Below are positions 10,682 to 60,704 of a stretch of DNA of 64,000 nt, piece by piece. Numbering within the stretch: the first letter of the stretch is position 1; each line of letters begins with the position of its first letter. Origin of the DNA: a virus (Duplodnaviria; Caudoviricetes); IMG/VR virus record IMGVR_UViG_3300030385_001875, positions 905-64,904 of that record, one strand, 5' to 3'. The position numbers were made by a program, and so were the translations under genes. The notes under the pieces were generated by a model. The model was not told the DNA's origin, did no database searches, and saw only the letters and a list, made by a program, of their open reading frames with translations.

Positions 10682-10691
10682 GGGGGAGGTT

Positions 10692-35522: not shown

Positions 35523-37220
35523 ATGGCTAAGTTTACAGAAGCTGAACTTGGATTGGGCGCATCAGCTATCGTTAAAAACATAATGACTTACAAGACGATG
35601 GCAGATAAAGCTCGTACAAGTCGAAGAAGAGACGAAAGTAAACAGCTTTTTCAAAGAGCGAATTTAGAGCTTGATAAGCTAAAGACCGTGATCGATGTTA
35701 AAAAGCTCCAACAGGATCAAGCATACAAAAAAGGTATCCTAGCCCATCAGGACAAAATTCTTCAGTTTAAACTTAATAATGAAAACAGCGTAGAGAACAG
35801 ACAGAAATCTGTTCAGAGTCTAATAAAAAATGAAGCTGTCGGCTTAACTCCTGCACAGATAAAGAACCTCCATATCTGGGCAGCTACAGACAACTCTAGT
35901 TTAATAGATGACATTCTTTCTGGACCTCAAAGCAAGCAACCTAGTGTTAATGATAGAAGCAATTTAAATAAATTGGGAGTTGACCTCCAATCCGAAGTAC
36001 ACGGGGTTCCTGCTACAAAGTCCCAGCAAGAGGCAGAGGGCTATGAAGGTGGGGGGTACGCATCCCGAAAGCATAAACCTCTCTCAGACCTAGTTAAAGA
36101 TTACATTACAGATTACAATACTCCCGACGAAACTCGGGCTTTAGTTCACAAAGTAAGAAACTTGCAGATGCTGGTAAGCAATTTTGCTAAACCTGAGAAT
36201 GCACGATGGATAGGTGGTTCAGAAGATATGGCATTAGACCAAATTGAAAGAGCGTTAAGTTCTCTCAATACTGTCGAAAACCCGCTTAACCCTAAACAGG
36301 GTCGGCACGGTTTCATGTGGCATAAAAAGGCAGGAGGCCAGATAACCGACAAACTAGCTAAAGAAGCTGGGCAACAGTTTGGTCAAGTATGGAATACTGC
36401 TGCCGACTATGAAGTGGGAATGGCAAAGGAACTGAACAACCTGCGATTAATGGTTAAAGCTGCAAAGGGTAAAGGACAGCCCCAGCAACAACAAGGACAA
36501 GCCCAGCAACAACAAGGGCAACCCGGAGAACAGAAAGTCCGTGAAGGTGCAGCAACAGATATATGGAATAGCCAATCGGAAGCTCTTAAGGAAGAGGATC
36601 AGGGTGGGCTTTCTAGTAAAATGACGGAAGGTGTCGGTCCTAGAGATAAGGATCAGCCTAAAGTTTATGAGAAGCTAAGTCGTAGACAGCAAGGAAGATC
36701 AGGTCGTGAAGGAGATCTAGGGGACACGACACAAAATCCTGCTGTTTTACGAGCGCATCTGGGAGAAGACATGACGAGCGAGGAATCATCTGGAGATTAC
36801 CATTTCAAACCAGAGGGTAATAGAGGGCTCATCAAGGACGTAGTAGATAAGGCAGCATCATTTTGGAATACTAGAGGAGGTCAAGAGCTCGAGATTAAGG
36901 ACCGCATAAATTCTATCCAAACGATGGTGACATCTCTTGAAAGGGGTGAAGGTCCTCCTAGACATCAGAAAAAAGTATTTGAAGATATGATGAGTTACGC
37001 TCACGCTCTAGGTTGGCCTGAACCAGAACAGTCAGACTTAAGACTTTCTGAAGAATGGAAATCAAGGATGTTAGCCTTACTCAAAAAATTCACTCGAAAA
37101 GAGATTAAAGCACCTACAGAGAGAAGAGACATGAGTGGAAGTCTTTTAAAAGACACACAAGGTCAATGGTACAACAATATCAATAAGGGGGGTAACAGTG
37201 GCTACCAACAAAACTACTGA
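35523..37220 (+). CDS. Probable internal virion (ejection) protein
   Basis: Helical, Q-rich; sits between the SLT and giant proteins; GGAGG RBS. Confidence 0.55.
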   Translation: MAKFTEAELGLGASAIVKNIMTYKTMADKARTSRRRDESKQLFQRANLELDKLKTVIDVKKLQQDQAYKKGILAHQDKILQFKLNNENSVENRQKSVQSLIKNEAVGLTPAQIKNLHIWAATDNSSLIDDILSGPQSKQPSVNDRSNLNKLGVDLQSEVHGVPATKSQQEAEGYEGGGYASRKHKPLSDLVKDYITDYNTPDETRALVHKVRNLQMLVSNFAKPENARWIGGSEDMALDQIERALSSLNTVENPLNPKQGRHGFMWHKKAGGQITDKLAKEAGQQFGQVWNTAADYEVGMAKELNNLRLMVKAAKGKGQPQQQQGQAQQQQGQPGEQKVREGAATDIWNSQSEALKEEDQGGLSSKMTEGVGPRDKDQPKVYEKLSRRQQGRSGREGDLGDTTQNPAVLRAHLGEDMTSEESSGDYHFKPEGNRGLIKDVVDKAASFWNTRGGQELEIKDRINSIQTMVTSLERGEGPPRHQKKVFEDMMSYAHALGWPEPEQSDLRLSEEWKSRMLALLKKFTRKEIKAPTERRDMSGSLLKDTQGQWYNNINKGGNSGYQQNY

Positions 37221-46200: not shown

Positions 46201-49200
46201 GTGGAGTTGTTCGCCAACCAAATAGCTAAATGGGCTTTAGATGTCGGTGCTCTGGATAAAGATTTCCAAAAAGCCAGTAACAGTATAGATCCAGATAAAC
46301 GTCCGTTCTTAGCGATACTCAAGGAAGTGTTTAAAGACATTATCAAGTCGCTTAAAAAACTTTACAACGAAGTGCTAATCGCCTTAAAGGTACGTTTTCA
46401 AGGTGACTCCAGAAGCGAAGGGTTGGAATACCTAACAGTAAAACCGATGGTTTCATTTGCTGAATGGATGGACAATTGGGTTACAAGAGTAGAAGGTCAC
46501 CGAGAAACAAAAAGAAAAACAGCAGGTGATGTAAAAAGGTTCTTTACATGGAAAAAAGATGATTACAACACTCTAAGAATCTTGCCAGAAGACCCTATAC
46601 TCCCTGATGAAGTTAAAGATGACCCTAGAGGAAAGATAGAAGATCACCAGATACCTAAAAGTGTCTTTGGAGAAAACGGAGACGCTAACGTTTTCCCGCA
46701 AGGGCTCGAACAAATAGATGTAGCTAGAGCGATGGCTCGTCGAAATATCTCCCCTGCTCCAGACAGTGATCCCGCAAGGGCAGAAGAAATTGAGAGTATG
46801 GCTATGGGGACAGGAGACTTTGTTAATAAAGCTAGAAATGTTATGGGTGAAGCGTGGAAAAAGGGCTGGCTTCCTATTGAACAAAAAACAGGGGCGGGTG
46901 ACTTTTTCTTCACGATGGCTGTCCAACTAAGGAATCGAGGTTACGGATGGATGGTGGACCTCATAGAAGAAGTCAGGGATAACTCCCAAAGAAAATGGGG
47001 GGAAGCGAACATCAAGATGTTAAAAGGTGAAGCCGAATTGCAGGGTGGATTCTGGAAGGGGTGGTACAGGAAATTCGGGGTCTATAATATTAAGGGAGTA
47101 GGGGTCCCAAAGAAGAACCAATACATGAAAGATGTAATGCCCCTGATTCGTAAGTTTATGGAGACAGGATATGAAAGGACATATAATAAAGGAACGAAAC
47201 ACGAACGACAGTTTGATGAAGAAGGTAACCGACTACTGCATCCTGTTGTTGTTGGGATTGACCTTAAAACAGCTTGGGGAACATTGGCAACATCAGAACA
47301 ACGACGACCCGCAAAAACAGAAAAAGAAGCGTACCAATTGTTACTCGCTCATATCTCACACGTAGCGGAAGGTAAGGAAGAAGCGTTACTAGCTCCAGTT
47401 CTTGATATTGTCGCAGCGTGGAAAGAAAATAGAGAAGAGTTAGCTAACAAGATATTAGAGATCAGTGCCACTAACAAAGATATGGGTAAGTTAGGGGAGA
47501 AAGTAGATCCTGACGAAGAGTTAGCTGAACTGCTTATGTCTATAGCATTAGGCCCAGCTAACGGTAATAACCCTCCAGCAAAAGCGCAACTGGCTAACTT
47601 ACTTAACTCTAATTTTGGTGTCAGTATTACACCTGAACTAATCATTAGAGAAGCTACAAAAGATAACCTTATTAAAAGAGGTGTCTTGTTCCTTGTCCAA
47701 GATGTCGCTAATCAATACGCTGTGGCATATGATAACGGGAAAGTAATAATATATGACCACAAAAGAATGAGAGACCCTGTTTGGTTATATGACGGAAACC
47801 TAAAAATTAAGAGCGAATGGTCACCTCACAAAGCGGATTACTTACCTCACATGTTCGATCTGGAAAAATTGGGGATGGACAACCCAGCTTCCGCAAAATG
47901 GAAAGCTAGTGTTAAAGCTTTCATGGATGCGAACCCTGACAAGAATTGGGATGAAGCTATGGCAGCACAAAAGCTGTCGAGTTATATCGTAAATTCAAGG
48001 AGTAACAAATTCGGTAACCTTGAATTCACAAGAGAATACAATATCCCTTGGTATGAAGAAGACTTCTTTAAAATCACTTCAATCTACTTGTCCCGTGCAT
48101 GGAGACGGGCCTACGAGATAGAGGCTTTTGGTCAAAACAACGAAATCTATGAAGAGATGATGCTCGACTTTGCTTCGGGCCAAACAGACACAAGATCTGT
48201 ATCTCCAAGCCTGTTCAAGCTCAATAGACAACATAAAGCGACCCGTAAACTACGAGATGCGATGGGGTTCAACACCCCTTGGGCTCAAAGTTTACGGGGG
48301 TTGATTGATAACGCTATGCCGTTAGCAGCAGAACAAGAGAGAGGGTCTAAACTCTACTCAACTTTCTTTAACCCTGAAACAGGTGAACCGTACCATCTTA
48401 ACAAAGATGAACCTCAGTTTCAGTATATGTCACTTAGGGATTGGGAGACTCTTGAAGAGGCAGGGATTCTTAACGCTAACAGGGATAATGCGGGTAACAT
48501 TCAGTCATATAATGCTGTACCAGAAACTGCACACGTAGTTAATGCGCTCTTCGAGATAACTCCTGAAGGTATTGATAACGACAGTATAGCACGAAAGTGG
48601 ATTGATAGGCAGATAGGAAGCGTCCATTCCTCCAGTGAAGAACGTCGGTTAGATGATCTGTATAAAGAGTTAAAAACGGCTGCTGCATGGGCATTCCTTT
48701 CCCGAGCATGGACTTCTAATATCTCTCAACCAGCGAACGCTGTCAGGTGGACAGGAATGCGGTCTTTCTTGGAAGCTGTCCGAGACATCTTCAAAGAACA
48801 AGACCGAGATTGGGCTGCTGCCACAGGTGCATTAACCAGTGATATCGCTGCTTTTTACAGTGGAGGTGTTTTCAGTGCTGATGTCCTTCTTCGTAGATGG
48901 ACACCATTCCAGTTTATTGAAGCCAAGATTAACCGTCAAATCTCAGCACTTGCTGGTAGAAACTATCTGGTAGTAGCATTAAAGAAATTCCAGAAGAACC
49001 CTGATGCCAAAGAATTACGACGGTTTACGGAACTGGATTTAGTTAGGTTATCAGATGAAGAGCTCGGTGCACTCGGGGCAACAGCAACAGAGAAAGATAT
49101 CGATAGAGCAAAAGCAGAGAAAACAAAAGAACTGCTTTTTGATGCTATAGGTGAGAACGGGGTTACAGAAGAAGAGATCAATATAGCGAAAAGCTTTGCC

Positions 49201-49974
49201 TCAAATGTTCTTCCATACGTTACGAAAGATGCAGACGGAAAAGCTGTCCTAACTGAAGAGAAGGATAGTAACGGTAACCGTATAGTTAAAGGTGACTACA
49301 CGCATCTCCAAAAACTTTCGCAAATAATTTCGAGAGGTGCGTTACGGATTTCAAATAAGACCCAGTTCAAAACAGAACCTATCGATCTTCCTCCATCGTA
49401 CACTGCATCTCCTCTGGGTAAACTGATGGGCCAGTTTACAACGTTCACCATCAAACAAGCACAGTTCACTAAAGATGCGCTTTGGAGAGATTGCAAGAAC
49501 TTCAGGAACGATCCGTTCGGTGTCCTACCTCCGATGTTGTCATTTCTAGTTGCAGCAGGAGGTTTGGGAATGGTGTCCAATATCATTGGTTCACTGTTCA
49601 ACGCTGATATAGACGAAGCTAAGAAATGGATCTATGAATCAAACGAAATTCAAAACCTTCTTGCACACTGGAACCGAGCAGCAGCGTTTGGAGCAATCTC
49701 CTACTTATTAGATGTAGGGAATATCCCGGGAGCAATAGGCGGGTTCTTTAGTATCCGTGCATTCGGCCTTGCTGAAAGGTTGTACAGGTATCCACAGAAA
49801 GCTCCGAGACTAATCCCTGTAGTTGGACCTGCAATACAAACAACTTTAGATAGAGGTTTCAAGGAAGGTTTCTGGGGAGGAGATGAAGATTACGGTACTC
49901 CTGCTATGAATCAGGTTATGGGAAGAAGAGGCCGAGGTGGGGGTAGAGGTAGAGGCAGAGACACACGGAGATAG
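37198..49974 (+). CDS. 4258-aa polyvalent injected protein: Strawberry-notch SF2 helicase + zincin metallopeptidase-like domain
   Basis: LSKVQLEAI, GHGTGSGKGR, FDEAH, VYATATAASE, YASRLGLWGEGT, AEATGR, AGATGQSYHA, QRVHY.LQPGW.AD..QGFGRTNR.DQ, RFSSVIAKRL; LAHEMGHAFH at about 45907. Confidence 0.85.
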   Translation: MATNKTTESLIFGGQTYSYKLPRDLTEEEQVRISSYTKTFPELEPLIQQRLNDKGADELMRFFDRLDTPENIIKSIKKVQSGEVSSERFYGDIAAGTQTGLAADQSLGGTLRAEATQRAPHLVKTFAKNSRDIMVNLKEDPVKFLKEIGWSMITSPIVIAAGGLETTGKLFSGDYATDPDWSWRPLTGTGEKGKGVGLAGALQFVPMLGAATRASRWARNLKGFSATTKAGKVMSGASIALGKAARFTPERAVGYKLSNTLADLPLAWRDALSTAGNLAEIDPLELVADLPFQLMLNAPQRIGLPTFARYIKKRQLRKQATQAATQAEAAAKDPTQVHRADITPENFDEEFSNLIDTITTMAEEKVGPKGVYTPYRDFLMNLGDQLTEMEMTPEGLTEARHLVDAAKEVIDELTTNVRSILENAEQHDQVQEMRRGQGWGEEEVKNGLSVVAATINQEIQRLTEAPFATKGTVTAEEAEGVKADNAKRLETLKDALGQISGFEPTLENLTLAERLMEFTIDPANVGYEGIGESITSVTEHLEELALGLLSNSMGQQAKSGEVLDDIFSDFPFEAYTDMSRFSNRPFRFITALDQMASEELGREATRAEKDAYTRRFAASLIKMAGALRNDGPTMTTLVNSVNIIREIIAGVFSTPERTQGLLETDVAYIPQGPAVVGKPYSGWNPPTEQEATQEVNEEDKDVEVEEEVEEKVEEEVEVEEKVEGDVEEPAPIHVSLDDILADDTVVADDTVEEVEEKEEVKPLTGKIAAEIDKFGGLDDMFSAAPSMADEELRSQTPLTDAQKEEKARQFALKIGVLLFKEKVNDFGEFLDSMVELLVKSPEDIRKLEIMKGPMVSTWGQLQGEAYGKGDTDFANSMTPLAEVAALVDKRMFDLTGEALEEGDEDESSDDAGPERTGAQGTRTGIQGDAEAGGGEATDGETVSGDRGETEGDPVIGDERVGEDIAVDPEPSPEEGPVEQPKQPIIQRIKDFFLTPVSQSDRRVQQELSEQKEHISYQAQDILTPDGEYAFANEDGTDAAHDHKAKLVTSSTLGMTVSPQITYIPEGLDTNVQVVTRDETGAIVKDAEGNPVSETKNIVRDGLLSKVQLEAIAVAGQTWLTRTYQGFRKAIMWGHGTGSGKGRMIAGAIVEAFSRVPSNGKRRALWITESKSLAETDAMRDWEALGQDPEMIFNFDKSKWDKKTANTTKRDEQGVTGNVVNFLPDEGVMTITYHSLGSGGGAISDILKNTNLSTEEMDRQIDEILQKKKGTQYHNLVTVLNWLTFGEKQRITSHKTMKDSHLKWKDFSGVIAFDEAHTMKKVGTGAGAGSNAMIALGLQHQTPESRIVYATATAASEVDNFRYASRLGLWGEGTEFDNADDFITHVGRTGVAGLEILTKDMKALGLYVAAQLSFEGVEVDPLHIELDDQEIERYNTFVKALDDGYKVLEQILADNRMNLSKNDITQMRSQWWGEHQRLVNSYQAGLVTSQMLDDFQNNYGSENYTPVFQMISTGETSFERSIDRLLSNPKYTDKNGNITIPQDENGNYILSEEMVNEIDITGKQDLIAQIDKMTDIRPWSVGPDGDKSISANRKDDLKADGQKYGAEIPAPIEDLVLIKARLMESLETVTLATMPLHSLIEHFGAENIAEATGRNRRLISRPKKGGAEGEREYIIERHGNKGKSSDILDFKNDDKEAIVFSIAGATGQSYHASNEYKNKRQRVHYVLQPGWEADKTMQGFGRTNRTDQASAPIYRILSTNLPSSKRFSSVIAKRLQMLGALSEGTQKAGAAEMFSGAESILLTQEGVQVLRNFIRDTWFRSTGTGWNPRSLANQEIINDYLINLQHEPEKTLVLSNPDGSLSKLQSLEVETGLDLTELAQIETDISLITQVYEAVAEQFDFANEAYNRMGLEWDIANQDEINSDPMTDPVYMPVLGGGTVDMSQWLNRMMTLPFGWQNSIFGLIAGRIQSEWDQALSLGIADTGIESVTAHKIKLNPKMEDVPIFTGTAAQTFAHQVDLELPQTETRLSGIVERLRNNLAEYRTFKGIFKDGDGQVMAAFASTVLEGEERKGKITAIYPSRKNDSALKVVGNNMSLFYLDGITQLISREEFLKNFVDGESVISPDWDGSPMMNTPFGQEGREGLQRGVEEWVNQLVDGYTKNAVGVPLPEGQTNKDAEGNPISLYKESRWYITGAHLPLWKKIMPKSTSRDKKNAPLPIIRRISLPFKDGTQERIAVEIASNKLFTTATAEVKAKAVMGAVTPKTKYMDKDAPHFEGVIDEATGIYHELTRWFDEASEKKVLVLTDGSVLVDYPYQSFDSESGQEATLHRIYLFSAKENPQVQNEINSSDNSFFVSEHAGLGFESEGRTDDFRKNVEWFKDKGFIIHAEEGQLVLPSSRHDAVKALANVLNEFYIDHGHIEGTVHKMFPASTLKASAYKPIYFDTLPSMETPPVGRVSEMMFDSIPQMLTSGFVVNDDLTGERKVLFNAGETKVGYPGHERNLNVDDLFANEEDIKWIEEKQPNIAELLFFEEMWDDVPPSGGFRDLSSGDPVSGGYLNSGVQHVSVHFLGGKTGTHLAEYGYMVTVYRPLQKNPETGEEIAHSVQSVIVPAYVSKDGTPKFLEENMSEMENLLGSNRHSENQPTTILKRFSGNLNIHPTSRTSRRVMQFLNIAMLQEKKRNMEHRAGPFDPTRTKRVFDHGDTGHEKTVYATESVPENLFNMAGRFAKVLGFHFGTNKHLAPTNLKDTQKVLWEDEAGKHKTHREIRQRPQTASKILIYTDVDSGEAASSWVEVDSIKDGQGTKYRNSLNIRMPSTYTRASTYDHHPDHAEAKITVSPATAARFRLKAYGSYWNIFSPLRGEDVMGKFTPNLGNSRTDGSICFRTQTAEDSTIDEPQQVMTLAHEMGHAFHYTVLDSLNWQFQEPLYHLFRKLHAKIGKEKWTEEMLIYAASNPQYAKDFLEALKAYDLPPDSLTDPDKVRAALIAEGERGGEYAQYLLSHVELFANQIAKWALDVGALDKDFQKASNSIDPDKRPFLAILKEVFKDIIKSLKKLYNEVLIALKVRFQGDSRSEGLEYLTVKPMVSFAEWMDNWVTRVEGHRETKRKTAGDVKRFFTWKKDDYNTLRILPEDPILPDEVKDDPRGKIEDHQIPKSVFGENGDANVFPQGLEQIDVARAMARRNISPAPDSDPARAEEIESMAMGTGDFVNKARNVMGEAWKKGWLPIEQKTGAGDFFFTMAVQLRNRGYGWMVDLIEEVRDNSQRKWGEANIKMLKGEAELQGGFWKGWYRKFGVYNIKGVGVPKKNQYMKDVMPLIRKFMETGYERTYNKGTKHERQFDEEGNRLLHPVVVGIDLKTAWGTLATSEQRRPAKTEKEAYQLLLAHISHVAEGKEEALLAPVLDIVAAWKENREELANKILEISATNKDMGKLGEKVDPDEELAELLMSIALGPANGNNPPAKAQLANLLNSNFGVSITPELIIREATKDNLIKRGVLFLVQDVANQYAVAYDNGKVIIYDHKRMRDPVWLYDGNLKIKSEWSPHKADYLPHMFDLEKLGMDNPASAKWKASVKAFMDANPDKNWDEAMAAQKLSSYIVNSRSNKFGNLEFTREYNIPWYEEDFFKITSIYLSRAWRRAYEIEAFGQNNEIYEEMMLDFASGQTDTRSVSPSLFKLNRQHKATRKLRDAMGFNTPWAQSLRGLIDNAMPLAAEQERGSKLYSTFFNPETGEPYHLNKDEPQFQYMSLRDWETLEEAGILNANRDNAGNIQSYNAVPETAHVVNALFEITPEGIDNDSIARKWIDRQIGSVHSSSEERRLDDLYKELKTAAAWAFLSRAWTSNISQPANAVRWTGMRSFLEAVRDIFKEQDRDWAAATGALTSDIAAFYSGGVFSADVLLRRWTPFQFIEAKINRQISALAGRNYLVVALKKFQKNPDAKELRRFTELDLVRLSDEELGALGATATEKDIDRAKAEKTKELLFDAIGENGVTEEEINIAKSFASNVLPYVTKDADGKAVLTEEKDSNGNRIVKGDYTHLQKLSQIISRGALRISNKTQFKTEPIDLPPSYTASPLGKLMGQFTTFTIKQAQFTKDALWRDCKNFRNDPFGVLPPMLSFLVAAGGLGMVSNIIGSLFNADIDEAKKWIYESNEIQNLLAHWNRAAAFGAISYLLDVGNIPGAIGGFFSIRAFGLAERLYRYPQKAPRLIPVVGPAIQTTLDRGFKEGFWGGDEDYGTPAMNQVMGRRGRGGGRGRGRDTRR

Positions 49975-50906: not shown

Positions 50907-51842
50907 ATGAATAACCTAGCATTGACAAATCAGGAATTGGTAAAACCGATATCAGTGCTCTTCAAGGACAGGGTTTATCCTATCCATGTCAAGTTTAACC
51001 CCGCTACTGTTTGTAATATTCGTTGCACTTTCTGCAATAATGATGATTATAATTATTTGAGTCCTGATGCTAAAAATCTGGCAAACATCCCAGATACCAT
51101 CAAGATGTTTAAAGGGTTGCGTGATCGTGGCACAAAGGCTGTTAGTATCGAAGGTGGTGGTGAGCCTACAGTTCATCCTGATTTCAACTTACTGGTTTCA
51201 TCATTGGCAGGTTTGGGTCTTGAGGTAGGGTTGTTAACCAATGGCACTCGATTAAAATCAATTGAGCCTGTGATGGGCTTGTTCACTTGGGTAAGGGTAA
51301 GTTTCTCTGATGAATATGAAGATATAACAGCAAATGACCTGACATTGGACCTAGTTCTGGATCAGGTCTCAAGCTGGATAAAAACTGAGCAGCAGGTCGA
51401 TATCAGTTTCAATTTCGTGGATATGGGGATCGATAACGTTATATGGGACGGGGTTGTTGAGTTCATAGCCGAACATCAGGGATACAGCAACTTCTTGGGG
51501 ATGAGGGTCTCACCTGATGATACTCAAGATAAAGGATTGACTAAAGAGTCTGATCTTGAAAGTGTTATCTTTACAGGGGGAGTAACTGAAGACACTCCCA
51601 TACCTAAAGGGGGTCGATGTAAGGTAGGGTTAGCCAGACCCGTGATAACCCCTAATCATACGGTATACGCTTGTTGTCGCCTGATGGAAGGGTTCAACTT
51701 CTCTGCACCTTATAAAGAAGACATCTTAACGATAATTGATAAGCAGATAGAATACACATGTTCTCTTACCGAATGCCCTTTCAACAGCTTAAGAGAGACC
51801 CTAAACAGTATTGACGAGGTGAGGCATCCGAATTTTGTTTGA
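50907..51842 (+). CDS. Radical SAM protein with SPASM/twitch-like C-terminus
   Basis: CNIRCTFC, EGGGEPTVHP, LLTNG, WVRVS; C..VYACC..C...C. Confidence 0.9.
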   Translation: MNNLALTNQELVKPISVLFKDRVYPIHVKFNPATVCNIRCTFCNNDDYNYLSPDAKNLANIPDTIKMFKGLRDRGTKAVSIEGGGEPTVHPDFNLLVSSLAGLGLEVGLLTNGTRLKSIEPVMGLFTWVRVSFSDEYEDITANDLTLDLVLDQVSSWIKTEQQVDISFNFVDMGIDNVIWDGVVEFIAEHQGYSNFLGMRVSPDDTQDKGLTKESDLESVIFTGGVTEDTPIPKGGRCKVGLARPVITPNHTVYACCRLMEGFNFSAPYKEDILTIIDKQIEYTCSLTECPFNSLRETLNSIDEVRHPNFV

Positions 51843-52854: not shown

Positions 52855-53496
52855 ATGGAAACGTTGACCGAGGTAAGGAATCACTGGGTTGAAAAGGGTT
52901 GGCATATTGGTAATCAGAAGTCGGGGATAGGTTATTTGGAGAATTTTTATGATAAGGTTTTCCCCCCATTAAGAGAAAATTGCAAAGCCTTATTGGAAAT
53001 AGGTGTTTGGCATGGAGGCAGTTTAGACCTATGGAGGGCATACTTTCCTGACGAAACTGAAATATATGGTATCGACAATCTCCCAGAAAACGTCCTCTAT
53101 CGTTCAGAGGTAGAGGGTCACCACCTCGAAGGTGATGAAATTAAAGGGGCAACGCTTATTGTAGGGGATGCTTATTCAGATGAAGTCGTGAACCAGCTTC
53201 AAGATAACTATTTTGATATTATTATAGACGATGGTAACCACGCATATACGTCTTGGGAAATCCTGATAGTCAAGTATTACCCTAAATTAAAGACTGGGGG
53301 AATAATGATTATTGAAGATCTGATGTCCACCCTCGATATTGGCTCCACGGAGAGGGAATCTTTAAAGGCTAAGGCAGAAGAGGTGGGATTTTCCTCTGTT
53401 GAAGAGCACGATATGAGTGGATTCGCCAATGGTGCACATTTTGATAATAACCCTATGCTTCAGGGGGAGACTTTTATATTAAAACTAGAAAAATAA
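52855..53496 (+). CDS. Class I SAM methyltransferase (Methyltransf_24-like)
   Basis: LLEIGVWHGGSLDLWRAYFP..IYGID, FDIIIDDGNH, LKTGGIMIIED. Confidence 0.9.
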   Translation: METLTEVRNHWVEKGWHIGNQKSGIGYLENFYDKVFPPLRENCKALLEIGVWHGGSLDLWRAYFPDETEIYGIDNLPENVLYRSEVEGHHLEGDEIKGATLIVGDAYSDEVVNQLQDNYFDIIIDDGNHAYTSWEILIVKYYPKLKTGGIMIIEDLMSTLDIGSTERESLKAKAEEVGFSSVEEHDMSGFANGAHFDNNPMLQGETFILKLEK

Positions 53497-54279
53497 ATGT
53501 TAAACCTCTGGAACTCTCAAACCCCCCAGACGATTATTATGACTTCAGCTATGTATACAGGGACAACTTTCCTGAGAGAACTTTTGATATCGATACCGCA
53601 CTTGGTAACAACCCTAACCAGAGACCTAGCCAATGACAAGTCGGGGCCTTTTTATTTGCAGGATTGCACAGGTAAGGTTTGGAATTCACCTCAAATTAAC
53701 TTAACTGATCTTAATAGCTATTTAACTAAACTGAAGAGAGGTAATGGCAAGATATTATTCCTAGAAGGGCATATCCATGAACATTGGATGCACAGTCTTG
53801 TCTTTTTTGTGACTTTTAATCATAAAGTCATATCCCCCATAAGACATCCATTTGATTCGTTGCTAACGAAATACCTGAGACAAGAACCTCATATCCTAAA
53901 TACTGACCCTTACGACAGGCATCCGGGTTGGCTTTGGTCTTACTTGCAGATCCTAGCCTTACAAAAGAATCGACCTAAAGATGTAGTTTTGGTTCCTGTT
54001 GATTTATTAGGTCAAAAACCTGAAGAGGAACGGGTAACCGAACTTGTTTCTTTGTTAGCTAGTATTGGTGTCAAGGTCAGTGAAAAGAAAAATCAGGAAT
54101 TTTACCAGTTAGCTAGGGAATGGAAACCAACAAACACTCACACTTCACAGTTTCAAGAAGAAAAGAGAGCAGTCAGCGATGAAGTGTATCAAGAAATTAC
54201 TGACAGGTTAGAGAAATCCAATGTTTACTACTATTTGGAACAAGCAGGGATTCATTACCCCATAAAAAAAAGACCCTAG
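53497..54279 (+). CDS. Sulfotransferase-like protein
   Basis: 5'-PSB-like TSAMYTGTTFLRELL and 3'-PB-like IRHPFDSLLT. Confidence 0.65.
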   Translation: MLNLWNSQTPQTIIMTSAMYTGTTFLRELLISIPHLVTTLTRDLANDKSGPFYLQDCTGKVWNSPQINLTDLNSYLTKLKRGNGKILFLEGHIHEHWMHSLVFFVTFNHKVISPIRHPFDSLLTKYLRQEPHILNTDPYDRHPGWLWSYLQILALQKNRPKDVVLVPVDLLGQKPEEERVTELVSLLASIGVKVSEKKNQEFYQLAREWKPTNTHTSQFQEEKRAVSDEVYQEITDRLEKSNVYYYLEQAGIHYPIKKRP

Positions 54280-54302
54280 TGAATGAGACTAGGATCTTTT
54301 TT
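54264..54302. terminator. Bidirectional terminator at the convergence of the two genome arms
   Basis: A8-GACCCTAGT-loop-ACTAGGATC-T6. Confidence 0.7.
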
Positions 54303-54387
54303 ATTGTTTGAAAATAACAAAGGAGAAGCAATATGAACGAGCGATGTCTGAAAACGCTATGACTGAAGCACACATTGCAACATAAAC

Positions 54388-54416
54388 AGTCTAACTCAAC
54401 AGAACAGTCTTGTCAA
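54388..54416 (-). promoter_or_regulatory. sigma70-like promoter pointing toward the 54264 terminator
   Basis: TTGACA (54416-54411), 17-nt spacer, TAGACT (54393-54388). Confidence 0.55.
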
Positions 54417-54421
54417 GAGTC

Positions 54422-54968
54422 GTATCGTTGTGTCCCGTCTCGTCGCATTGTTATGTTGTGGGATGTCGCATTGTGTTATGTCGCATTGTCCAGTAACGTC
54501 CTGATCCGTCCCGTCTCGTCGCAGTGTCAAGTGCAGTCCGGTCCCGTAAAGTCGCATTGTATTGTTTGGGCTAGTTTCGTACTGTATTGGTTACGTCGCA
54601 ATGGCAAGTCAAATAGCGTATAGTTTGGTCGCATTGTGATGTCAAGTGAAGTCTGGTCGGGTCCCGTCCAGTCGCATTGTCCCGTACAGTTGCGTTCTGT
54701 TTAGTCGCATTGTCAAGTCACGTTCGGGGTGAAGGCTCGTCCTGTCGCATTGTGAAGTCCTGTCGTGTCATGTCCAGTCCCGTCGCATTGTATCGTATTG
54801 TCCTGTCTTTGTCTGGTCATGTCGCATTGTACCGTATCGGTGCGTCAAGTCTTGTCGCATAATGTATCGTCGCATTGTTCGGTAGCGGATAAGTTAGGTC
54901 CTGTCGCATTGTTTCGTTTTGTTTTGTCCAGTAACGCCCTGTTTCGTTCCGTCGCATTGTAATGTAAT
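54422..54968. repeat. Pentamer-periodic array 1: (GT-NNN)n blocks punctuated by GTCGCATTGT; candidate guide-RNA array
   Basis: 16 motif copies (13 exact; variants at 54518, 54595, 54854). Start-to-start spacings 23,15,38,33,44,33,43,33,40,38,39,33,15,34,48. GT recurs every 5 nt between motifs. Confidence 0.92.
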
Positions 54969-54982
54969 TGAACTTTTTTCGT

Positions 54983-55020
54983 AAAAAAAAGCGATTTGGC
55001 GAATTTTTCGAGAATTGCTT
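54983..55020 (-). terminator. Terminator-like hairpin + U8 between the epimerase and array 1
   Basis: AAGCGATT...AATTGCTT stem with inner CGAA/TTCG; A8 run on the + strand. Confidence 0.5.
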
Positions 55021-55063
55021 CGTATAGGGTCGGAACAGGGGCTGTTAGAGTAGCCCCCACCCC

Positions 55064-55072
55064 ATTATAGCA
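55064..55072 (-). promoter_or_regulatory. Extended -10 promoter (TGnTATAAT) facing array 1
   Basis: Minus strand TG-C-TATAAT immediately after the epimerase stop. Confidence 0.5.
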
Positions 55073-55074
55073 CA

Positions 55075-56082
55075 TTAGCACCAATCGTGATAATCTTTGT
55101 ACCAATCCACGAAATTTTGTACCCCCACCTTAATAAAAGTGCGAGGTCGGTAAGTCGTCACTTCCTGCAATTTACTGATATCTGCATTGGTGAAACTGAT
55201 ATCTCCCAGTTGATAATCTGTTAGCTTGATTTTCAGCTTTTTCCCCGTTGCATCTTCAATCGCTTTCACAAAGTGATACTTACCCTGCCAATCCTCTGAA
55301 TAAAGCGGGACGGGATTGTTTGATCCCACGTTGAAGATATGATGATAAAATGGCCTTGGGTTTTCTATACCACTCAACCCTCGTTCCATCGCTAAGACCA
55401 AACCTTCTACCGCATCATCGACGTAGGTAAAGTCTCTGGCTTGGGAGCCAGACCCATACAACTCTACCTCTTCATCTTCAAGGATAGCTTTAGTGAATTT
55501 CCATAAAGCCATATCGGGTCTACCCCAAGGCCCGTAAACAGAAAATAACCTTAAACCTGTGCAAGGAATTCCGTACATGCGGGAATAAGCTTCTGCTGTC
55601 ACCTCGTTACTCTTCTTGGTAGCAGCATACAGCGAATAAGGGTGATCTGTGTTATCAGTTTCCTTGTACCCTGTGGATGTACTAACCCCATAAACACTTC
55701 CTGAAGAAGCGTACACCAAATGAGGTGTCGGGTTCATGTTTCGAGCAGTTTCCAGTACCGATTGGAAGCCTGTGATGTTAGGCAGGTATTCTTCAGGATG
55801 ATCGATTGAATGGCGAACACCCGCTTGTGCAGCAAGATGAATAATCACATCTATACCACGAAAAGTCAGGTCCTCTTTCTCCATCCCCACAACATCCATA
55901 TGTTTGAACTCGAATTTCCAGTTGTCCATCCATTCAAGATTACCGATCCTATCTTTTTTCAGCTTAACGTTATAGTAGTTATTGATGTTATCGATACCTA
56001 TAACGTTATGGTTATCGGATAACAATCTCTTAGTAACGTGATAACCAATAAACCCAGCGCAACCTGTAACTAGAATCTTCAT
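55075..56082 (-). CDS. NAD-dependent sugar epimerase (UDP-glucuronate 4-epimerase-like)
   Basis: VTGCAGFIG, HLAAQAGVR, YASSGSVYG, YAATKK, VYGPWGRPDMA, RDFTYVDD. Confidence 0.92.
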   Translation of the reverse strand: MKILVTGCAGFIGYHVTKRLLSDNHNVIGIDNINNYYNVKLKKDRIGNLEWMDNWKFEFKHMDVVGMEKEDLTFRGIDVIIHLAAQAGVRHSIDHPEEYLPNITGFQSVLETARNMNPTPHLVYASSGSVYGVSTSTGYKETDNTDHPYSLYAATKKSNEVTAEAYSRMYGIPCTGLRLFSVYGPWGRPDMALWKFTKAILEDEEVELYGSGSQARDFTYVDDAVEGLVLAMERGLSGIENPRPFYHHIFNVGSNNPVPLYSEDWQGKYHFVKAIEDATGKKLKIKLTDYQLGDISFTNADISKLQEVTTYRPRTFIKVGVQNFVDWYKDYHDWC

Positions 56083-56606
56083 CCCTTACCTCCTATCCTA
56101 CCTTTCCATTCACGTTTAGGGCTCCAGTCACCTGCAAAAAGGATGGTGAAATCCAGTAACCCTAATTTACTGATGGGAGAATCTTTTGAAAGAATTTCTG
56201 TCCCTCCATTGACAGCTAACGCTCGAGGTAAAATCCGAAAATATCCACCGTTACAGATAAGTTCTGATGTTTGAAGTTCCCCGAAAACGAAGCTAAAGTC
56301 TTTGTCCCAGACCCCCTCTTCAAGTTCCTCCCTGAGCAAGTCATAATTTTCGCCACATCCCAAAAAATCTTGGATATCGCAAATACCGAACACAAGCAGT
56401 TCATGTGAGCTTTGCGGAAAACTGACAGAAGCAGTAAACCTGCCTGAATCTAATGTCCCATCAAACTTTATTTTCAGGTCCATTAAAGCGACGCTTCGTT
56501 TCCCTTGCTCAAATAGCATCTCTGCAAAGTCTTTAGGGAACAAACTCAACTGCAAGGACTTTAACGATCCTGATTGGGATTTATTCGTCGATATCTTGAT
56601 CTCCAT
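56079..56606 (-). CDS. Hypothetical protein
   Basis: Likely start MEIKIS at 56606 (the track starts it at 56750); ATGA overlap with the epimerase. Confidence 0.5.
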   Translation of the reverse strand: MEIKISTNKSQSGSLKSLQLSLFPKDFAEMLFEQGKRSVALMDLKIKFDGTLDSGRFTASVSFPQSSHELLVFGICDIQDFLGCGENYDLLREELEEGVWDKDFSFVFGELQTSELICNGGYFRILPRALAVNGGTEILSKDSPISKLGLLDFTILFAGDWSPKREWKGRIGGKG

Positions 56607-57000
56607 CTTCTTCTTCCTTCCTTTTATAGTAAGCTTTCTGTTTACATGTATTAGAACAATACATCGCCCGTTTATGACGGGTCTCGAATCGTGCTCCGCA
56701 ATGAACACATGCTCTGCCGTCACCAAAGACGGCATCATCCCTGTTTTCATCTGTGATACGTTCTATCTTAAAGTTGCAGATACGCACGGGAGGATTCTCA
56801 GGGTGAGAAAACAGTCTCCCCTGATTGGCATTGAAAATCTCCAGCAAAGTCAAAGCTGGATCATCCGTTAAAACCTCCAGATTGATTATCAACCTTGCGT
56901 TAGAAGGAGTTCTGCTATGAGCTCCCGCTACCGCATTAAGATGCTGTTTGTTGGAATCAGTGTCCCGATCCCAATAGTGGATCACTTTTTCTCTAGGCAT
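56581..57000 (-). CDS. Zn-finger protein (CxxC...YCSxxCK)
   Basis: CVHCGARF..RAMYCSNTCKQKAYYKR; AAGGAG RBS before MPREK. Confidence 0.65.
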   Translation of the reverse strand: MPREKVIHYWDRDTDSNKQHLNAVAGAHSRTPSNARLIINLEVLTDDPALTLLEIFNANQGRLFSHPENPPVRICNFKIERITDENRDDAVFGDGRACVHCGARFETRHKRAMYCSNTCKQKAYYKRKEEEDGDQDIDE

Positions 57001-57553
57001 CTCCTTCACCCTCCTTTTCAATCCAATCTACCATCTCATTAAGTTCCTCAATCTCAAGTGATCGGACAGTATTTCTATGCATCTCCATAGCGTGTGCCTG
57101 AACCTTGTCGTTGGGAACACTCTTCTCCTTCATCTTTACCCGAAGCATCTCCAGTAAAGTTTCCCGTTTATCTTCCTGCACTTCACGGGCTTTGGTTTTG
57201 GATTCGATGCGTGACATCTCTTCCGCTGACGCATACTCGCTTCCGCTTAATCCCGCTGCTGCGAGTGCTCTCCCAATAGCAGATGTCTCACAATTTTCAG
57301 TATAAGAAGCGAAATTAACGTTCTGCTTGTTTGTCTTCTCGATGAACTCCAACGCATGACCCACAAAAACGTCAGGTTGTTCCTGATCCTTCTTATGGTG
57401 GGTTACCGTTGATTTCATCAAGATGAAGGTGTCGTTAAGTTCTTCAATCTCTGTCTCAACCGAAACTGAATCACCTTCATCCCTTTTCTCATGGAACATA
57501 ACCATCCGTTCCGCAACAGTACGATACTCTTTACCACGAATTTTGATAGGCAT
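56993..57553 (-). CDS. Probable ssDNA-annealing recombinase (Rad52/Sak/ERF-like)
   Basis: IRGKEYRTVAER, GHALE..NCETSAIGRALAAAG, YASAEEM. Confidence 0.65.
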   Translation of the reverse strand: MPIKIRGKEYRTVAERMVMFHEKRDEGDSVSVETEIEELNDTFILMKSTVTHHKKDQEQPDVFVGHALEFIEKTNKQNVNFASYTENCETSAIGRALAAAGLSGSEYASAEEMSRIESKTKAREVQEDKRETLLEMLRVKMKEKSVPNDKVQAHAMEMHRNTVRSLEIEELNEMVDWIEKEGEGDA

Positions 57554-57554
57554 C

Positions 57555-57755
57555 TCAATTCTCCTCCTCAGATTCTACGATTGTGTGACAGGCAACTTCC
57601 AGAAATCGCATATAAGGTCCAGTTAAAACTTGATAGTTCGTCTGGTCAATCTTCTTTTCGACTTCTTTAATCGCATCTTCCCTGTCACTAGCTTCTACCT
57701 CAAGTAATTGCTCCATCGTTAGCTGGAGCACCGCTACGTATTTATTTTTCTTCAT
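57555..57755 (-). CDS. Small DpnD/PcfM-like protein
   Basis: KYVAVL..LLEVEASDREDAIKEV; GAGGA RBS. Confidence 0.55.
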   Translation of the reverse strand: MKKNKYVAVLQLTMEQLLEVEASDREDAIKEVEKKIDQTNYQVLTGPYMRFLEVACHTIVESEEEN

Positions 57756-57787
57756 AAAACTTCCTCCTCTTACTTAATAATGGGCAC

Positions 57788-57834
57788 AAAAAAAGCGTGA
57801 AAACTAACCGTTTTAGAGGCTAATTTTCACGCTT
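57788..57834 (-). terminator. Terminator immediately 3' (minus strand) of array 2
   Basis: AAGCGTGAAAA/TTTTCACGCTT stem + U7. Confidence 0.7.
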
Positions 57835-57840
57835 ACCAAT

Positions 57841-58241
57841 GTCACGTTTTGTGAAGTGTCGTACCGTTCTGTTTGGTCGCATTGTAAAGTACAGTGGGGT
57901 TGCGTGACGTTCCGTCGCATTGTAGAGTACAGTGTCGTAAGGTTTCGTCGCATTGTTGGGTGTTGGAACAGAAAGTATCGTCATGTCGCATTGTCTTGTT
58001 ATGTGGTGTATCGTATTGTCATGTCGCATTGTTACGTACTGTTTTGTCGCATTGTATAGTATCGTCTTGTCGCATTGTGAAGTTTTGTCCAGACTGCGTT
58101 GCGTCTCAGCTTGTCGCATTGTAAAGACATGAGAGTAAGCCTAGGCGCACCTAGGCTTATCTTTCATCCGTTTTTAGGCTTACGTTACCTTACTCATGGT
58201 ATAGTATCGTCTTGTCCTGTCGCATTGTTACGTTTCGTCGT
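57841..58241. repeat. Pentamer-periodic array 2, same GTCGCATTGT punctuation
   Basis: 9 exact copies at 57876, 57914, 57947, 57985, 58023, 58046, 58069, 58113, 58219. Spacings 38,33,38,38,23,23,44,106. Blocks such as gt-aaa gt-aca gt-ggg gt-tgc gt-gac gt-tcc. Confidence 0.92.
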
Positions 58242-58252
58242 ATTTGGGTTTG

Positions 58253-58780
58253 TCAACGGTAATACGGTTTTTGCTCAGGGAACTGTGACGGGAGGTATCC
58301 TTTGAACACCTCCGCTGTTATTTTCCCTTCACAAAGAACTGAATTCAGATCACTAAAGCTTCCCCTACCGTTGAACCTAGGATTCAATTTCTGTTGCAAG
58401 GCATGTCGGTATCGATGGGCATCTTCAAGCGTCTTGAATTTCTTCTTTATCGCATGTTTCAAGACACCTGAGTTGTACCACCATCCACCTTCTTCCTTAC
58501 CTCCAAACAGACGGTCAGTATCGTAGATTCCTACCCAGTAGGTTCCTTCATCCCTCAAAAGATGACTACGCCAGACCGCACCGTCACTAATATGGTCAAC
58601 GTGGATTTCTGACTCAACAGTCTTACTACACCCTTCACAGATGTAGAGATGGTCTCCCTTAAAAAGGAAAAGCCCGTCTGTTTTGCTCTGGGGCTCATCC
58701 CACGGGATGTCTGCCAACGTATCACAGTCAACGCATTCGATAACCCGTCTCAACTGAGTCTTGTGTTTATGTTTGTTCAT
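58253..58780 (-). CDS. Hypothetical protein with N-terminal Zn finger
   Basis: AAGGAGG RBS before ATG58780 (the track's GTG lies inside a terminator); CVDC...CEGC; FGGKEEGGWWY. Confidence 0.65.
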   Translation of the reverse strand: MNKHKHKTQLRRVIECVDCDTLADIPWDEPQSKTDGLFLFKGDHLYICEGCSKTVESEIHVDHISDGAVWRSHLLRDEGTYWVGIYDTDRLFGGKEEGGWWYNSGVLKHAIKKKFKTLEDAHRYRHALQQKLNPRFNGRGSFSDLNSVLCEGKITAEVFKGYLPSQFPEQKPYYR

Positions 58781-58808
58781 TGTTATTTCCTCCTTTCTAT
58801 TTTTAGGC

Positions 58809-58848
58809 AAAAAAAAATGGGTGAGAACAGAACTCCCTGCTCTCACCC
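58809..58848 (-). terminator. Rho-independent terminator
   Basis: GGGTGAGA/TCTCACCC + U9. Confidence 0.75.
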
Positions 58849-58854
58849 TTGGTG

Positions 58855-59061
58855 CTAATCTTCTGCATCCAGCTTCTCTTCGATCCTACGGAGTTGGTCT
58901 AGCACACCGTCCAGCTTTCGATTTAAGAGACTGAATGCGCTATGGAGACCATATCCCTCACGGAGGTGTTCATTGACCCCTTGAAGCACTCCTCGATGCA
59001 AATGGTCTACCGTTAAAGGTTCCTTGTCTTTATCTTTGAACCATAAGTGTTCGGGTTCCAT
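58855..59061 (-). CDS. Hypothetical protein
   Basis: AAGGAG RBS; C-terminal coiled coil. Confidence 0.6.
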   Translation of the reverse strand: MEPEHLWFKDKDKEPLTVDHLHRGVLQGVNEHLREGYGLHSAFSLLNRKLDGVLDQLRRIEEKLDAED

Positions 59062-59072
59062 ATCTTCTCCTT

Positions 59073-59405
59073 CTAGTTGAATACTGCTTTTTCCTTTTTT
59101 CGGTCACCAACAATCGTCATCCCGAAAAAGACCAATGCTTCATCTGCGAAATCCTTTGCTGATGCTTGTATCTTCTCGCTTCCAATTTCACGAAGAAATT
59201 CTTGGTGATGCTTCAGCAAAACGTCTTCGTTTGCGTCCCAGAACATTTGGGATACTTCCTCAAACTCTTCATGCTTGAAGACGAACTTGCAAAGGTTCTT
59301 GAAGTTAGCAAGAGGTGGAGCCTCCCCCACCCTCGCTACTGCCCAGTTGACTGGGATCTTCAACATCGCATATTCCTCGTTGTCGAGTACATCAAATGGA
59401 TTCAT
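59073..59405 (-). CDS. Hypothetical protein downstream of the RAMP gene
   Basis: TAATG coupling to the upstream 32-aa ORF. Confidence 0.6.
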   Translation of the reverse strand: MNPFDVLDNEEYAMLKIPVNWAVARVGEAPPLANFKNLCKFVFKHEEFEEVSQMFWDANEDVLLKHHQEFLREIGSEKIQASAKDFADEALVFFGMTIVGDRKKEKAVFN

Positions 59406-59503
59406 TATTGTGCTCCCACGACAATAGACATTACTTTCAAAAAGACTAGCACCCCCATACTACCAGCTATCAGGGTGAAAATGTCTGCGAAGAATGTTTT
59501 CAT
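59405..59503 (-). CDS. 32-aa single-TM peptide coupled to the RAMP gene (not in the ORF track)
   Basis: MKTFFADIFTLIAGSMGVLVFLKVMSIVVGAQ; ATGA overlap with the RAMP stop. Confidence 0.55.
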   Translation of the reverse strand: MKTFFADIFTLIAGSMGVLVFLKVMSIVVGAQ

Positions 59504-60177
59504 TTTTTCGCTCCCCTCTTCTTCTTCGCAGGTGGATCTATTTCTTCAAACACTACTACGTCGAACTTCCCTTTCTCAAAGCTTCGTTGGGAGCCCAGCC
59601 CAACTTCCTGTCCCAACTCAAGGATTTCTTGCAGGTGCTCGGGGTTAATGTCTTTAGTGCCTTCCATCCTCACACTGAGACACCAGATTTGAAACTCAAG
59701 GGTTGGCTTGATAAGATACTCCGCACTCTTGAGGATTGACCGCATCCCTTGCATGGTCTGAACGTGACCAGCAAAGTCCTCGATACCGTCTTCCTTGGGT
59801 CGGAACGGTTGAAATATAATCTTCTCTTCCGTGAACTCCTCCCCAATCCGTCCCTTCACCGCTGTCCCTTCACGAAGCGTCTGCTTACTTCCCCTGAGAA
59901 GTACAGTTAGCTTCAGTAGGGAAATGCACTGCTTCATCATCGCCTTGACAGCGTAGTCTCCAATATATAAAGCGTCTCTTTCAGTGCATCGCTTGAAGCC
60001 TGTTCGTACCTTCTCCTCCTCCTCTTCCAGATCCAAATCAGTTTCCACAATGGAGGTATCCTCTGACCCGAATTTCGCTTCCACGTAATTCTTGACGAGC
60101 TCTTTCGATTTCGGGAGCCCACCGTAGATACGGTTGCGGAATTCCAGCTTCACATTAAACTTCCTGAATATACTCAT
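59500..60177 (-). CDS. Stand-alone Cas7/Csm3-like RAMP-fold protein
   Basis: beta1 FNVKLEFRNRIYGGLP; LYIGDYAVKAMMK (cf. Csm3 PYIPGSSLKG); SAEYLIKPTLEFQI; C-terminal Gly-loop GLGSQRSFEKGKFDV; 225 aa; AAAGGAG RBS. Confidence 0.75.
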   Translation of the reverse strand: MSIFRKFNVKLEFRNRIYGGLPKSKELVKNYVEAKFGSEDTSIVETDLDLEEEEEKVRTGFKRCTERDALYIGDYAVKAMMKQCISLLKLTVLLRGSKQTLREGTAVKGRIGEEFTEEKIIFQPFRPKEDGIEDFAGHVQTMQGMRSILKSAEYLIKPTLEFQIWCLSVRMEGTKDINPEHLQEILELGQEVGLGSQRSFEKGKFDVVVFEEIDPPAKKKRGAKK

Positions 60178-60189
60178 TTGCTTCTCCTT

Positions 60190-60453
60190 TTATTGGTACA
60201 TCATGTCATCAAATTCTCTCGCACAGTTCACGAGATATTGTTTTGTGCGGGCAATCCGCACATTCAGACTTTCTTTTCGCCACGTTTGATGCTGGAGGTA
60301 CTTGAAAACCTTCTTCATCCATCCGTAATCTGGTAGAGACACAACTAGTCTCTTCAAGCTACCAGCGTCATTATACTCGAATACTATTGAATGCTCTCCC
60401 CCAGAGTGGCATGGTTCAAATACTATCGTGCCACGCTCGTCTGAGAATCTCAT
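60190..60453 (-). CDS. Hypothetical protein
   Basis: GGAGG RBS; ATGA coupling. Confidence 0.55.
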   Translation of the reverse strand: MRFSDERGTIVFEPCHSGGEHSIVFEYNDAGSLKRLVVSLPDYGWMKKVFKYLQHQTWRKESLNVRIARTKQYLVNCAREFDDMMYQ

Positions 60454-60647
60454 TCCTCCTCCTCCTCGTGGTTATCCTCCCAATCACACCAAGCAGTATA
60501 ATCCCTCATCTCTGCCTTGGTCATTTTGTCGAGAAGTAGATTAAGATGCTTCTTCATCCCCTCAAGTTCCGATTGCAGTAAATCAATTTGTCGCACCTTC
60601 TTCGATACCTTCAACAGCAATCGTTTGGTCATTAAATCTTTCAACAT
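60450..60647 (-). CDS. Hypothetical coiled-coil protein
   Basis: AAGGAGG RBS. Confidence 0.6.
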   Translation of the reverse strand: MLKDLMTKRLLLKVSKKVRQIDLLQSELEGMKKHLNLLLDKMTKAEMRDYTAWCDWEDNHEEEEE

Positions 60648-60670
60648 GGTTCCTCCTTCTACTAATGGGC

Positions 60671-60704
60671 AAAAAAAAAGCCCCTCCGAAGCGGAGAGGC
60701 TTTT
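60671..60704 (-). terminator. Rho-independent terminator
   Basis: AGCCCCTCCG/CGGAGAGGCT + U9. Confidence 0.75.

Follow-up and report, generated by a model that had tools for sequence, protein, structure and literature searches.

We believe that a tailed marine phage carries a small CRISPR-related, RNA-guided system for silencing DNA of the kind called VIPR (Viral Interference Programmable Repeat). The DNA under discussion, which we call the window, is a stretch of 64,000 nucleotides from the IMG/VR virus record IMGVR_UViG_3300030385_001875 (positions 905 to 64,904), and all coordinates without a locus name refer to it. The record is a contig of 64,904 bases whose ends overlap by about 135 bases, and thus a complete 64.8-kb phage genome; it encodes terminase, portal and major head genes, and the window is all of it except 904 bases. 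Two arrays in the window have the pentamer grammar of vrRNA genes, and a 225-amino-acid protein, P0001, is a Vipr. Taken together we consider it probable that these make up a VIPR system of a complete phage genome. The three elements are:

54422..54968, plus strand (the G/U-bearing strand, presumed to be the transcribed one): vrRNA array 1, with 16 marks and about 16 GT-NNN guide units

57841..58250, plus strand: vrRNA array 2, with 9 GTCGCATT marks

59500..60177, minus strand: the vipr gene, encoding the Cas7-fold RAMP P0001, with a G-rich loop at G193-F205 (GLGSQRSFEKGKF)

As the text of two bioRxiv preprints describes it, Vipr is a small phage-encoded RAMP that polymerises on vrRNAs built from GGY-NN pentamers, each repeat taking one protomer. 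The protein keeps G1, G2 and Y3 sequestered and offers N4 and N5 to double-stranded DNA, skipping one target base, and its natural targets are rival phages and satellites (10.64898/2026.04.26.720920, 10.64898/2026.04.26.720927). The original prediction for this DNA ascribed 5-nucleotide GGY-NN repeats to VIPR-type systems, and the preprints agree with it.

On the plus strand both arrays are non-coding and read as runs of GT-NNN pentamers broken by GTCGCATT. This motif occurs 23 times in the window, always on the plus strand, and 22 of the copies lie inside the two arrays (13 in array 1 and 9 in array 2). Shuffles that preserve dinucleotides contain it 1.14 times on average, and none of 100 shuffles reached 23. 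It had been claimed beforehand that two non-coding arrays share one grammar with 3-8 pentamers per unit, and the 23 copies against 1.14 expected bear this out. Array 1 reaches its total of 16 marks through one each of GTCGCAGT, GTCGCAAT and GTCGCATA. If the mark is written as GTCGCA plus any two bases, there are 16 + 9 = 25 marks enclosing 23 internal units, 15 of which are exact multiples of five (15, 25, 30, 35 or 40 nucleotides, that is, 3-8 pentamers). The 79 pentamers of these clean units have G at position 1 with a frequency of 0.97 and T at position 2 with a frequency of 0.91; positions 3-5 are near-uniform, the largest share of any single base being 0.35. The other 8 internal units are degenerate or contain indels of one or two bases. 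Of the 94 GT dinucleotides counted in array 1, 60 have another GT at +5, as do 42 of 65 in array 2; elsewhere in the window the counts are 186 of 3004, 12 of 328 and 11 of 154. Coding sequence is excluded because the period of five is broken by shifts of +3.

The same grammar holds when 14 related loci are added. The resulting 369 pentamers have G at 0.95 and T at 0.91 with positions 3-5 near-uniform, and units of 25, 30, 35 and 40 nucleotides predominate. Multiples of five account for 61 of the 95 distinct segments, and most of the longer segments are two units joined by a degenerate mark. The published GGY/NN (YNNGG) consensus does not describe these arrays, where only the G and the T are fixed and three positions vary; they do fit YNNNG, which the preprint accepts under 'a related consensus' (10.64898/2026.04.26.720920). 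Nor is there a structured 3' tail, since the guides are separated solely by an 8-nucleotide linear motif. A search of 54000-60700 with Rfam gave three chance-level matches and no ribozyme, with none in the pentamer tracts.

Array 2 is less regular than this description suggests. It has about 8 regular units (57841-58120), then an insert, then short terminal units (58219-58250). The insert is counted among the 8 irregular units:

58121..58218, no strand assigned: non-pentamer insert of 98 nucleotides in array 2, forming a hairpin of about 25 base pairs and conserved in L001, a related locus

RNA folding of 58100-58230 gives -41.9 kcal/mol (z -3.8), and none of 200 shuffles folds as well. Judging from its sequence, the insert could be a terminator on the GU strand or a processing element of the RNase III type. 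Array 1 also has an unusual part, the degenerate unit at 54595-54627, which reads GTCGCAAT and then GGCAA GTCAA ATAGC GTATA GTTTG. The window and loci of two other clades (L008, L012/L013) have this unit almost letter for letter and L001 has part of it, whereas most guides next to it are replaced. It might serve as an internal promoter or as a guide directed at some common target.

The protein is difficult to place by direct comparison. P0001 found nothing usable in Pfam, PHROGs or the PDB sequences. PADLOC gave a weak Csm4 match over the C-terminal third (E 2.1e-4) and NCBIfam gave the same family below its cut-off, and both a narrow (A1) and a wider (A3) profile against the PDB returned only sub-threshold matches of the G-loop to Cas6 and Csm4. 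There are 30 close homologues, and an exhaustive HMMER scan found 532 cluster representatives at E<=1e-3. From an alignment of 70 relatives AlphaFold gave a confident model, with a pLDDT of 92.8 and a pTM of 0.87. With this model Foldseek finds 99 PDB chains at E<=0.001, and the matches listed are CRISPR effector complexes of the Cmr-beta, type VII, Csm and Cas7-11 kinds. The link to Vipr itself comes from hhalign, where the 70 relatives of P0001 align with 30 relatives of SUSP1 Vipr at a probability of 95.5% (E 1.5e-8) over 134 columns spanning helix 1, the thumb region and the G-loop. The open reading frame (ORF) had been called RAMP-like, and its Cas7 fold and the homology of its family to SUSP1 Vipr uphold that call. 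It had also been said that no other cas genes were recognised, and PADLOC likewise found no Cas family in the 48 other ORFs of the window. TRF found no CRISPR-like repeat in the window and barely registered the pentamer tracts.

Our reference for Vipr is the SUSP1 locus KT454805.2, whose 195-amino-acid gene is identical to PDB 36pp_D, 'SUSP1 Vipr protein'. It has H17, R138, D177, W178 and R179, matching the residues given in the text of the structure paper (10.64898/2026.04.26.720927). R198 of P0001 aligns with R179, a residue of the pyrimidine pocket, and is invariant in 31 of 31 sequences. D74 and Y75 align with E71 and M72 of the same pocket, and S196 and Q197 stand in place of D177 and W178. 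We considered these residue changes as the cause of a relaxed G1, and this is ruled out by a GG-type relative from the Microcystis phage Mae-JY09, which also lacks D177. The reading frame of P0001 is unbroken and conserved: its cluster has 11 members, which occur on up to 12 contigs. P0001 is a minimal Cas7-like RAMP with an RRM core, a thumb and a glycine-rich loop.

If protein and arrays form one system they should travel together, and it had been stated in advance that homologues lacking such arrays would refute the idea. The 47 loci compared came from IMG/VR (2), metagenomes (36) and GTDB genomes (9); several duplicate each other or the window (L003, L020, L026), and 7 have less than 100 nucleotides after the gene. 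AC is the commonest five-phased dinucleotide on the gene strand, with GT opposite, in 22 of the 47 (38-100% protein identity), and these arrays begin within about 60-220 bases of the vipr stop codon. Another 4 of the 47 have CC-type arrays directly downstream on the gene strand, with GG on the opposite strand. The homologues do carry such arrays. None of the 47 has a G-type array on the gene's own strand, except for an artefact in L034, where a fold-back at the contig end (about 1000-1068) gives an array and then its own reverse complement, an artefact of assembly. No array was found in L019. GT-type arrays occur in relatives at 38-95% identity and GG-type arrays at 26-31%.

The marks of different clades, GTCGCATT, GTCGCAAGG and GTCTCTTGG, are related to one another. 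Loci of at least 58% identity have AATGCGAC, as the window does; those of 38-53% have GTCGCAAGG or GTCGCAATG when read on the G strand; those of 26-31% have pentamers ending in GG and the mark GTCTCTTGG or GTCGCWWSG. The homologue in Mae-JY09 (PP395641.1; L048) matches the P0001 family with an hhalign probability of 99.8%. The stretch L048 5962-7225 of this isolated cyanophage comprises the homologue, which is the last annotated gene (WWT39994.1, a 'hypothetical protein'), and then roughly 500 unannotated bases with which the record ends; these form a pentamer array of the GG type, on the strand opposite to the gene.

The structure of the mark is informative. Across 192 distinct punctuation contexts the register is held on both sides, with GT at -5 (0.97/0.93), -10, +8 (0.95/0.94) and +13, and the mark is composed of GTCGCA, then T/G/A, then T. 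From this composition and the kept register the mark is therefore an in-phase pentamer, GT-CGC, with fixed variable bases, followed by three extra bases. In the RNA GUCGCAUU would be an in-register GU-CGC pentamer plus three bases that break the 5-nucleotide register by +3, and it would divide the arrays into about 25 short guides of 3-8 protomers in all. It may be a filament stop, a handle or a cleavage site, to judge from the sequence. Because a Vipr filament steps by five, we infer that the +3 shift must end or restart it, and so each unit would serve as a guide of its own, 3-8 protomers long, with or without cutting of the RNA.

Comparison of closely related phages shows what the arrays keep and what they change. 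L001, whose protein is 95% identical, is syntenic with the window at 83-98% DNA identity, and the two have in common only 3 of the 16 units of L001. Array 1 has the same scaffold in both with different guides; the swapped units retain GT and the mark, and nearly all their variable bases differ. The guide at 57884-57913, which belongs to the window's array 2, recurs in array 1 of L001. Contigs of three further studies contain joints between the two arrays, and the same marks there enclose different guide-like letters; as these are assemblies across repeats, we read them only as hinting at variant arrays. In 34 families of homologous guides the variable columns number 9, 13, 26, 31 and 27 at positions 1-5. 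The three variable positions change alike, and none behaves as a free unread base. The sequences suggest to us that related phages trade guides in the form of cassettes and leave the scaffold in place.

By homology with SUSP1 the following mechanism can be proposed. The arrays would be transcribed on the G/U-bearing strand, which is the plus strand here and lies opposite vipr. Vipr would load one protomer per pentamer and hold the fixed G and U, and the variable bases would be presented for gapped pairing with the double-stranded DNA of a competing phage or mobile element, leading to silencing. The fixed G and U probably correspond to G2 and Y3 of the published G1-G2-Y3-N4-N5, with G1 relaxed, giving a 'YNNNG' repeat. 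When the two array types are aligned on their punctuation the invariant G falls at the same place, and therefore GU-NNN would map as [N]-G2-Y3-N4-N5. The G-bearing strand is taken as the homologous one because the distant GG relatives have GG on the strand of GT and a related mark in the same orientation.

A more specific idea is that all three variable bases are read in each pentamer and that the 8-nucleotide GUCGCAUU is a handle that delimits the filament. We hold this only tentatively and think it somewhat doubtful. The like composition and like rates of change at positions 3, 4 and 5 support the three-base reading. If it is true, the pairing rule differs from the dinucleotide-plus-one-skip code given in the preprints' text, guides of 5-8 protomers reach a CRISPR-like specificity of 15-24 nucleotides, GUCGCAUU is comparable to the 8-nucleotide tag of a CRISPR RNA, and one transcript carries many independent guides. 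A co-linear (2-skip) rule would make the array DNA a target of its own guides and for that reason is unlikely a priori. Coding targets read in threes would be expected to make the substitutions within guide families pile up on a single position. No such phase-locking is seen: the maxima add up to 38 of 66, where the null gives 36.6 (P 0.36).

A number of results weigh against the VIPR reading. We matched 44 clean guides under 9 rules to 416 kb of local DNA (the phage's own genome, 14 phage loci and 9 Poribacteria loci), and real guides did no better than shuffled ones. The sole perfect target match, 15/15, was unmasked array DNA and was rejected. The 7-pentamer guide at 54636-54670, searched exactly with its NNN bases at 0-skip and 1-skip, has 0 matches in IMG/VR and 0 in GTDB, and a 7-pentamer guide common to several clades has 0 in IMG/VR under the same rules. 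Exact matching is far stricter than the 80% criterion in the preprint's text (10.64898/2026.04.26.720920), so these blanks say little. The narrow profile of the P0001 family (A1) against the single SUSP1 Vipr sequence is not significant (probability 1.4%), so the link of P0001 to Vipr needs the wider profiles. The residue D177, which contacts G1 in SUSP1, is replaced in both the GU-type clade and Mae-JY09. The structured 3' tail of SUSP1 has no counterpart here. Nine loci from metagenome-assembled genomes of Poribacteria, with a protein 48-50% identical, have no array within 10 kb, and no neighbour of vipr, such as a vap-like accessory gene, is conserved across the 17 loci compared. Among 23 sequencing runs, no RNA run containing the stretch is listed. 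Finally, several of the objections concern the direction of transcription. The G-strand of the SUSP1 array is the vipr strand, whereas in the window it is the opposite strand. There is no convincing plus-strand promoter before either array. Promoter-like sites number 10 against 10.7 in shuffles, which is the chance level, and array 2 lies between a minus-strand gene and a strong minus-strand terminator, an arrangement that fits transcription on the AC strand too. A comparison of leaders across the loci revealed no convincing shared promoter. Two terminators lie near the arrays, and the first bears on which strand of array 2 is transcribed:

57793..57834, minus strand: strong intrinsic terminator, a 17-pair stem and then TTTTTGTGCC, abutting the left edge of array 2

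54275..54293, plus strand: weak terminator, a 6-pair stem and then ATCTTTTTTA, ending the late arm 128 nucleotides before array 1

The objections about direction belong to an alternative that keeps the VIPR system but has its arrays transcribed on the vipr strand. The guides would then be NNN-AC, bounded by AAUGCGAC, and the Vipr of this clade would grip A and C in place of G and U. The arrays do follow vipr on its strand in every locus that has arrays, and in SUSP1 the arrays and vipr are on one strand. The gene at 58253-58781 (minus strand) is followed by array 2 and then by the strong minus-strand terminator (57834-57793), with no terminator between gene and array. Two minus-strand promoter-like sites face array 1, at 55093-55064 (10/12 matches plus TG) and 54985-54956. 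However, such sites are at chance level, and in two clades (L002/L005/L008/L012/L013 and L034/L035/L037) a stable hairpin stands between the vipr stop codon and the array, which argues against read-through. The published structures, as the structure preprint's text presents them, grip two syn guanines and a pyrimidine (10.64898/2026.04.26.720927), R198 at the pyrimidine-pocket position is invariant, and the distant relatives place GG on the strand of GT with a related mark in the same orientation. We therefore think transcription on the AC strand is unlikely, though likelier than either of the explanations that follow.

The arrays might instead be a decayed or orphaned remnant that is no longer expressed or used by the protein. 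The 8 irregular units of 23, which are not multiples of five or lack GT, could be taken that way, as could the failure of the target searches and the position of the arrays, which end 1.25 kb and 4.5 kb downstream of vipr where those of the 58-63% relatives abut it. Yet 22 exact copies of an 8-mer remain, the fixed G and T still have frequencies of 0.97 and 0.91, the reading frame is unbroken and conserved, and between near-identical phages the scaffold is kept while guides are swapped, which points to use and not to decay. We find a remnant very improbable. It is also conceivable that the arrays act as DNA, as iterated protein-binding sites for an origin, partition or packaging. Array 1 sits at the junction of convergent arms, a common place for such sites, and the repeats are dense and phased. 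But a 5-bp phase with three free bases and a fixed 8-mer at an irregular spacing of 23-48 bp is unlike iterons, the variable bases are replaced cassette by cassette, and each genome has two arrays. The arrays also travel with a Cas7-fold RNA-binding protein across 26-95% identity, and an identical grammar has been shown to be RNA in SUSP1, according to the preprint's text (10.64898/2026.04.26.720920). Of all the explanations we give this one the least credence. The VIPR reading with guides on the G/U strand is the one we prefer.

VIPR as a kind is already published. The preprint's text describes seven types and says that loci 'typically' have an accessory vap gene; its methods name YNNNG, NNNGG and NNNNG repeats, and its text describes tail-less 'staggered' arrays (10.64898/2026.04.26.720920). 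The original prediction called the code here a distinct variant, and this overstated its novelty, since U-NNN-G is GU-NNN in another register and both YNNNG repeats and 'staggered' arrays appear in those parts of the preprint. P0001 is listed among NCBI sequences and may therefore already belong to the preprint's set. Compared with the preprint's text and legends, the distinctive particulars of the locus are the fixed 8-nucleotide mark with its +3 shift, the arrays opposite to vipr and three equally variable bases.

The closest well-described relative is the SUSP1 system, VIPR type II (PDB 36pp). Each of the two is encoded by a phage and has one small RAMP without further cas genes, both have guide genes of tandem pentamers with fixed and hypervariable positions, and their protein families are related at profile level with a common G-loop arginine (R179/R198). 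The preprints' text gives SUSP1 GGY plus two variable bases, 9-16 repeats per guide and a pseudoknot tail of about 40 nucleotides, whereas here there are GU plus three variable bases, 3-8 repeats and an 8-nucleotide linear mark. SUSP1 has its arrays on the vipr strand, where here the arrays are opposite, and the 17 loci have no conserved vap gene; the SUSP1 Vipr has 195 amino acids against 225 for P0001, and the comparison with its single sequence is not significant. The YNNNG or 'staggered' form is the same in its repeat, U-NNN-G, and in having consecutive guides without long tails, but the preprint's legend gives a 1-nucleotide overlap of neighbouring vrRNAs where we see a fixed 8-mer and a +3 shift. 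The Cas7 subunits of types III and VII (Csm3, Cmr4, type VII Cas7, the Cas7-11 domains) share the G-rich loop. For them one protomer per fixed step of guide RNA is established, and for P0001 it would follow by analogy. Their step is 6 nucleotides and not 5, the sequence identity of P0001 to Cas7 is 7-16% so that only the fold is common, and by PADLOC and TRF the window has no CRISPR repeats, Cas10, Cas5, Cas6, Cas1 or Cas2.

VIPR was described in 2026, and in the preprints' text a reading rule has been demonstrated for the GGY/NN type alone. The present locus shows the GU-NNN branch in a compact, complete and well-conserved form, with one 225-amino-acid protein, about 25 guides, a sharp 8-nucleotide mark and many natural variants. 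It is a convenient system in which to ask whether three bases are read per protomer, how boundaries are fixed when there is no structured tail, and how guides are exchanged. A different code, if true, would give more room for designing small programmable DNA binders.

The Candidatus Poribacteria loci deserve a separate word (L039-L047, about 10630-10850 in each; some of the assembled genomes have 5-Mb chromosomes). After the gene they have a conserved tract of about 130 nucleotides that ends in a bidirectional terminator and holds a GTCGCC/GTCGCA-like mark and a few G-started pentamers on the opposite strand. This may be a domesticated single-guide form.

The surroundings of the system in the phage are as follows. 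The region 54300-60300 has no blastn match among 50,697 phage records. Array 1 lies between the end of the plus-strand late (structural) arm and the end of the convergent minus-strand arm. Between array 1 and the rest of the minus-strand arm is a gene for an NAD-dependent nucleotide-sugar epimerase/dehydratase (55075-56082, minus strand; Pfam PF01370, E 9e-51), which is missing from the otherwise syntenic L001 and is therefore a recent gain or loss. Upstream of array 1 a radical-SAM protein similar to prokaryotic viperins (50907-51842, plus strand; PADLOC pVip, E 5.4e-12) is followed by a methyltransferase gene (52855-53496). The structural arm also contains a single ORF of 4258 amino acids (37198-49974, plus strand), to which PADLOC matched no family, preceded by an internal virion protein with a transglycosylase domain (33164-35521). 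Another gene of that arm (26189-27352, plus strand) matches phrog_2928, a PHROG annotated as tryptophan halogenase, with an E value of 1.8e-74.

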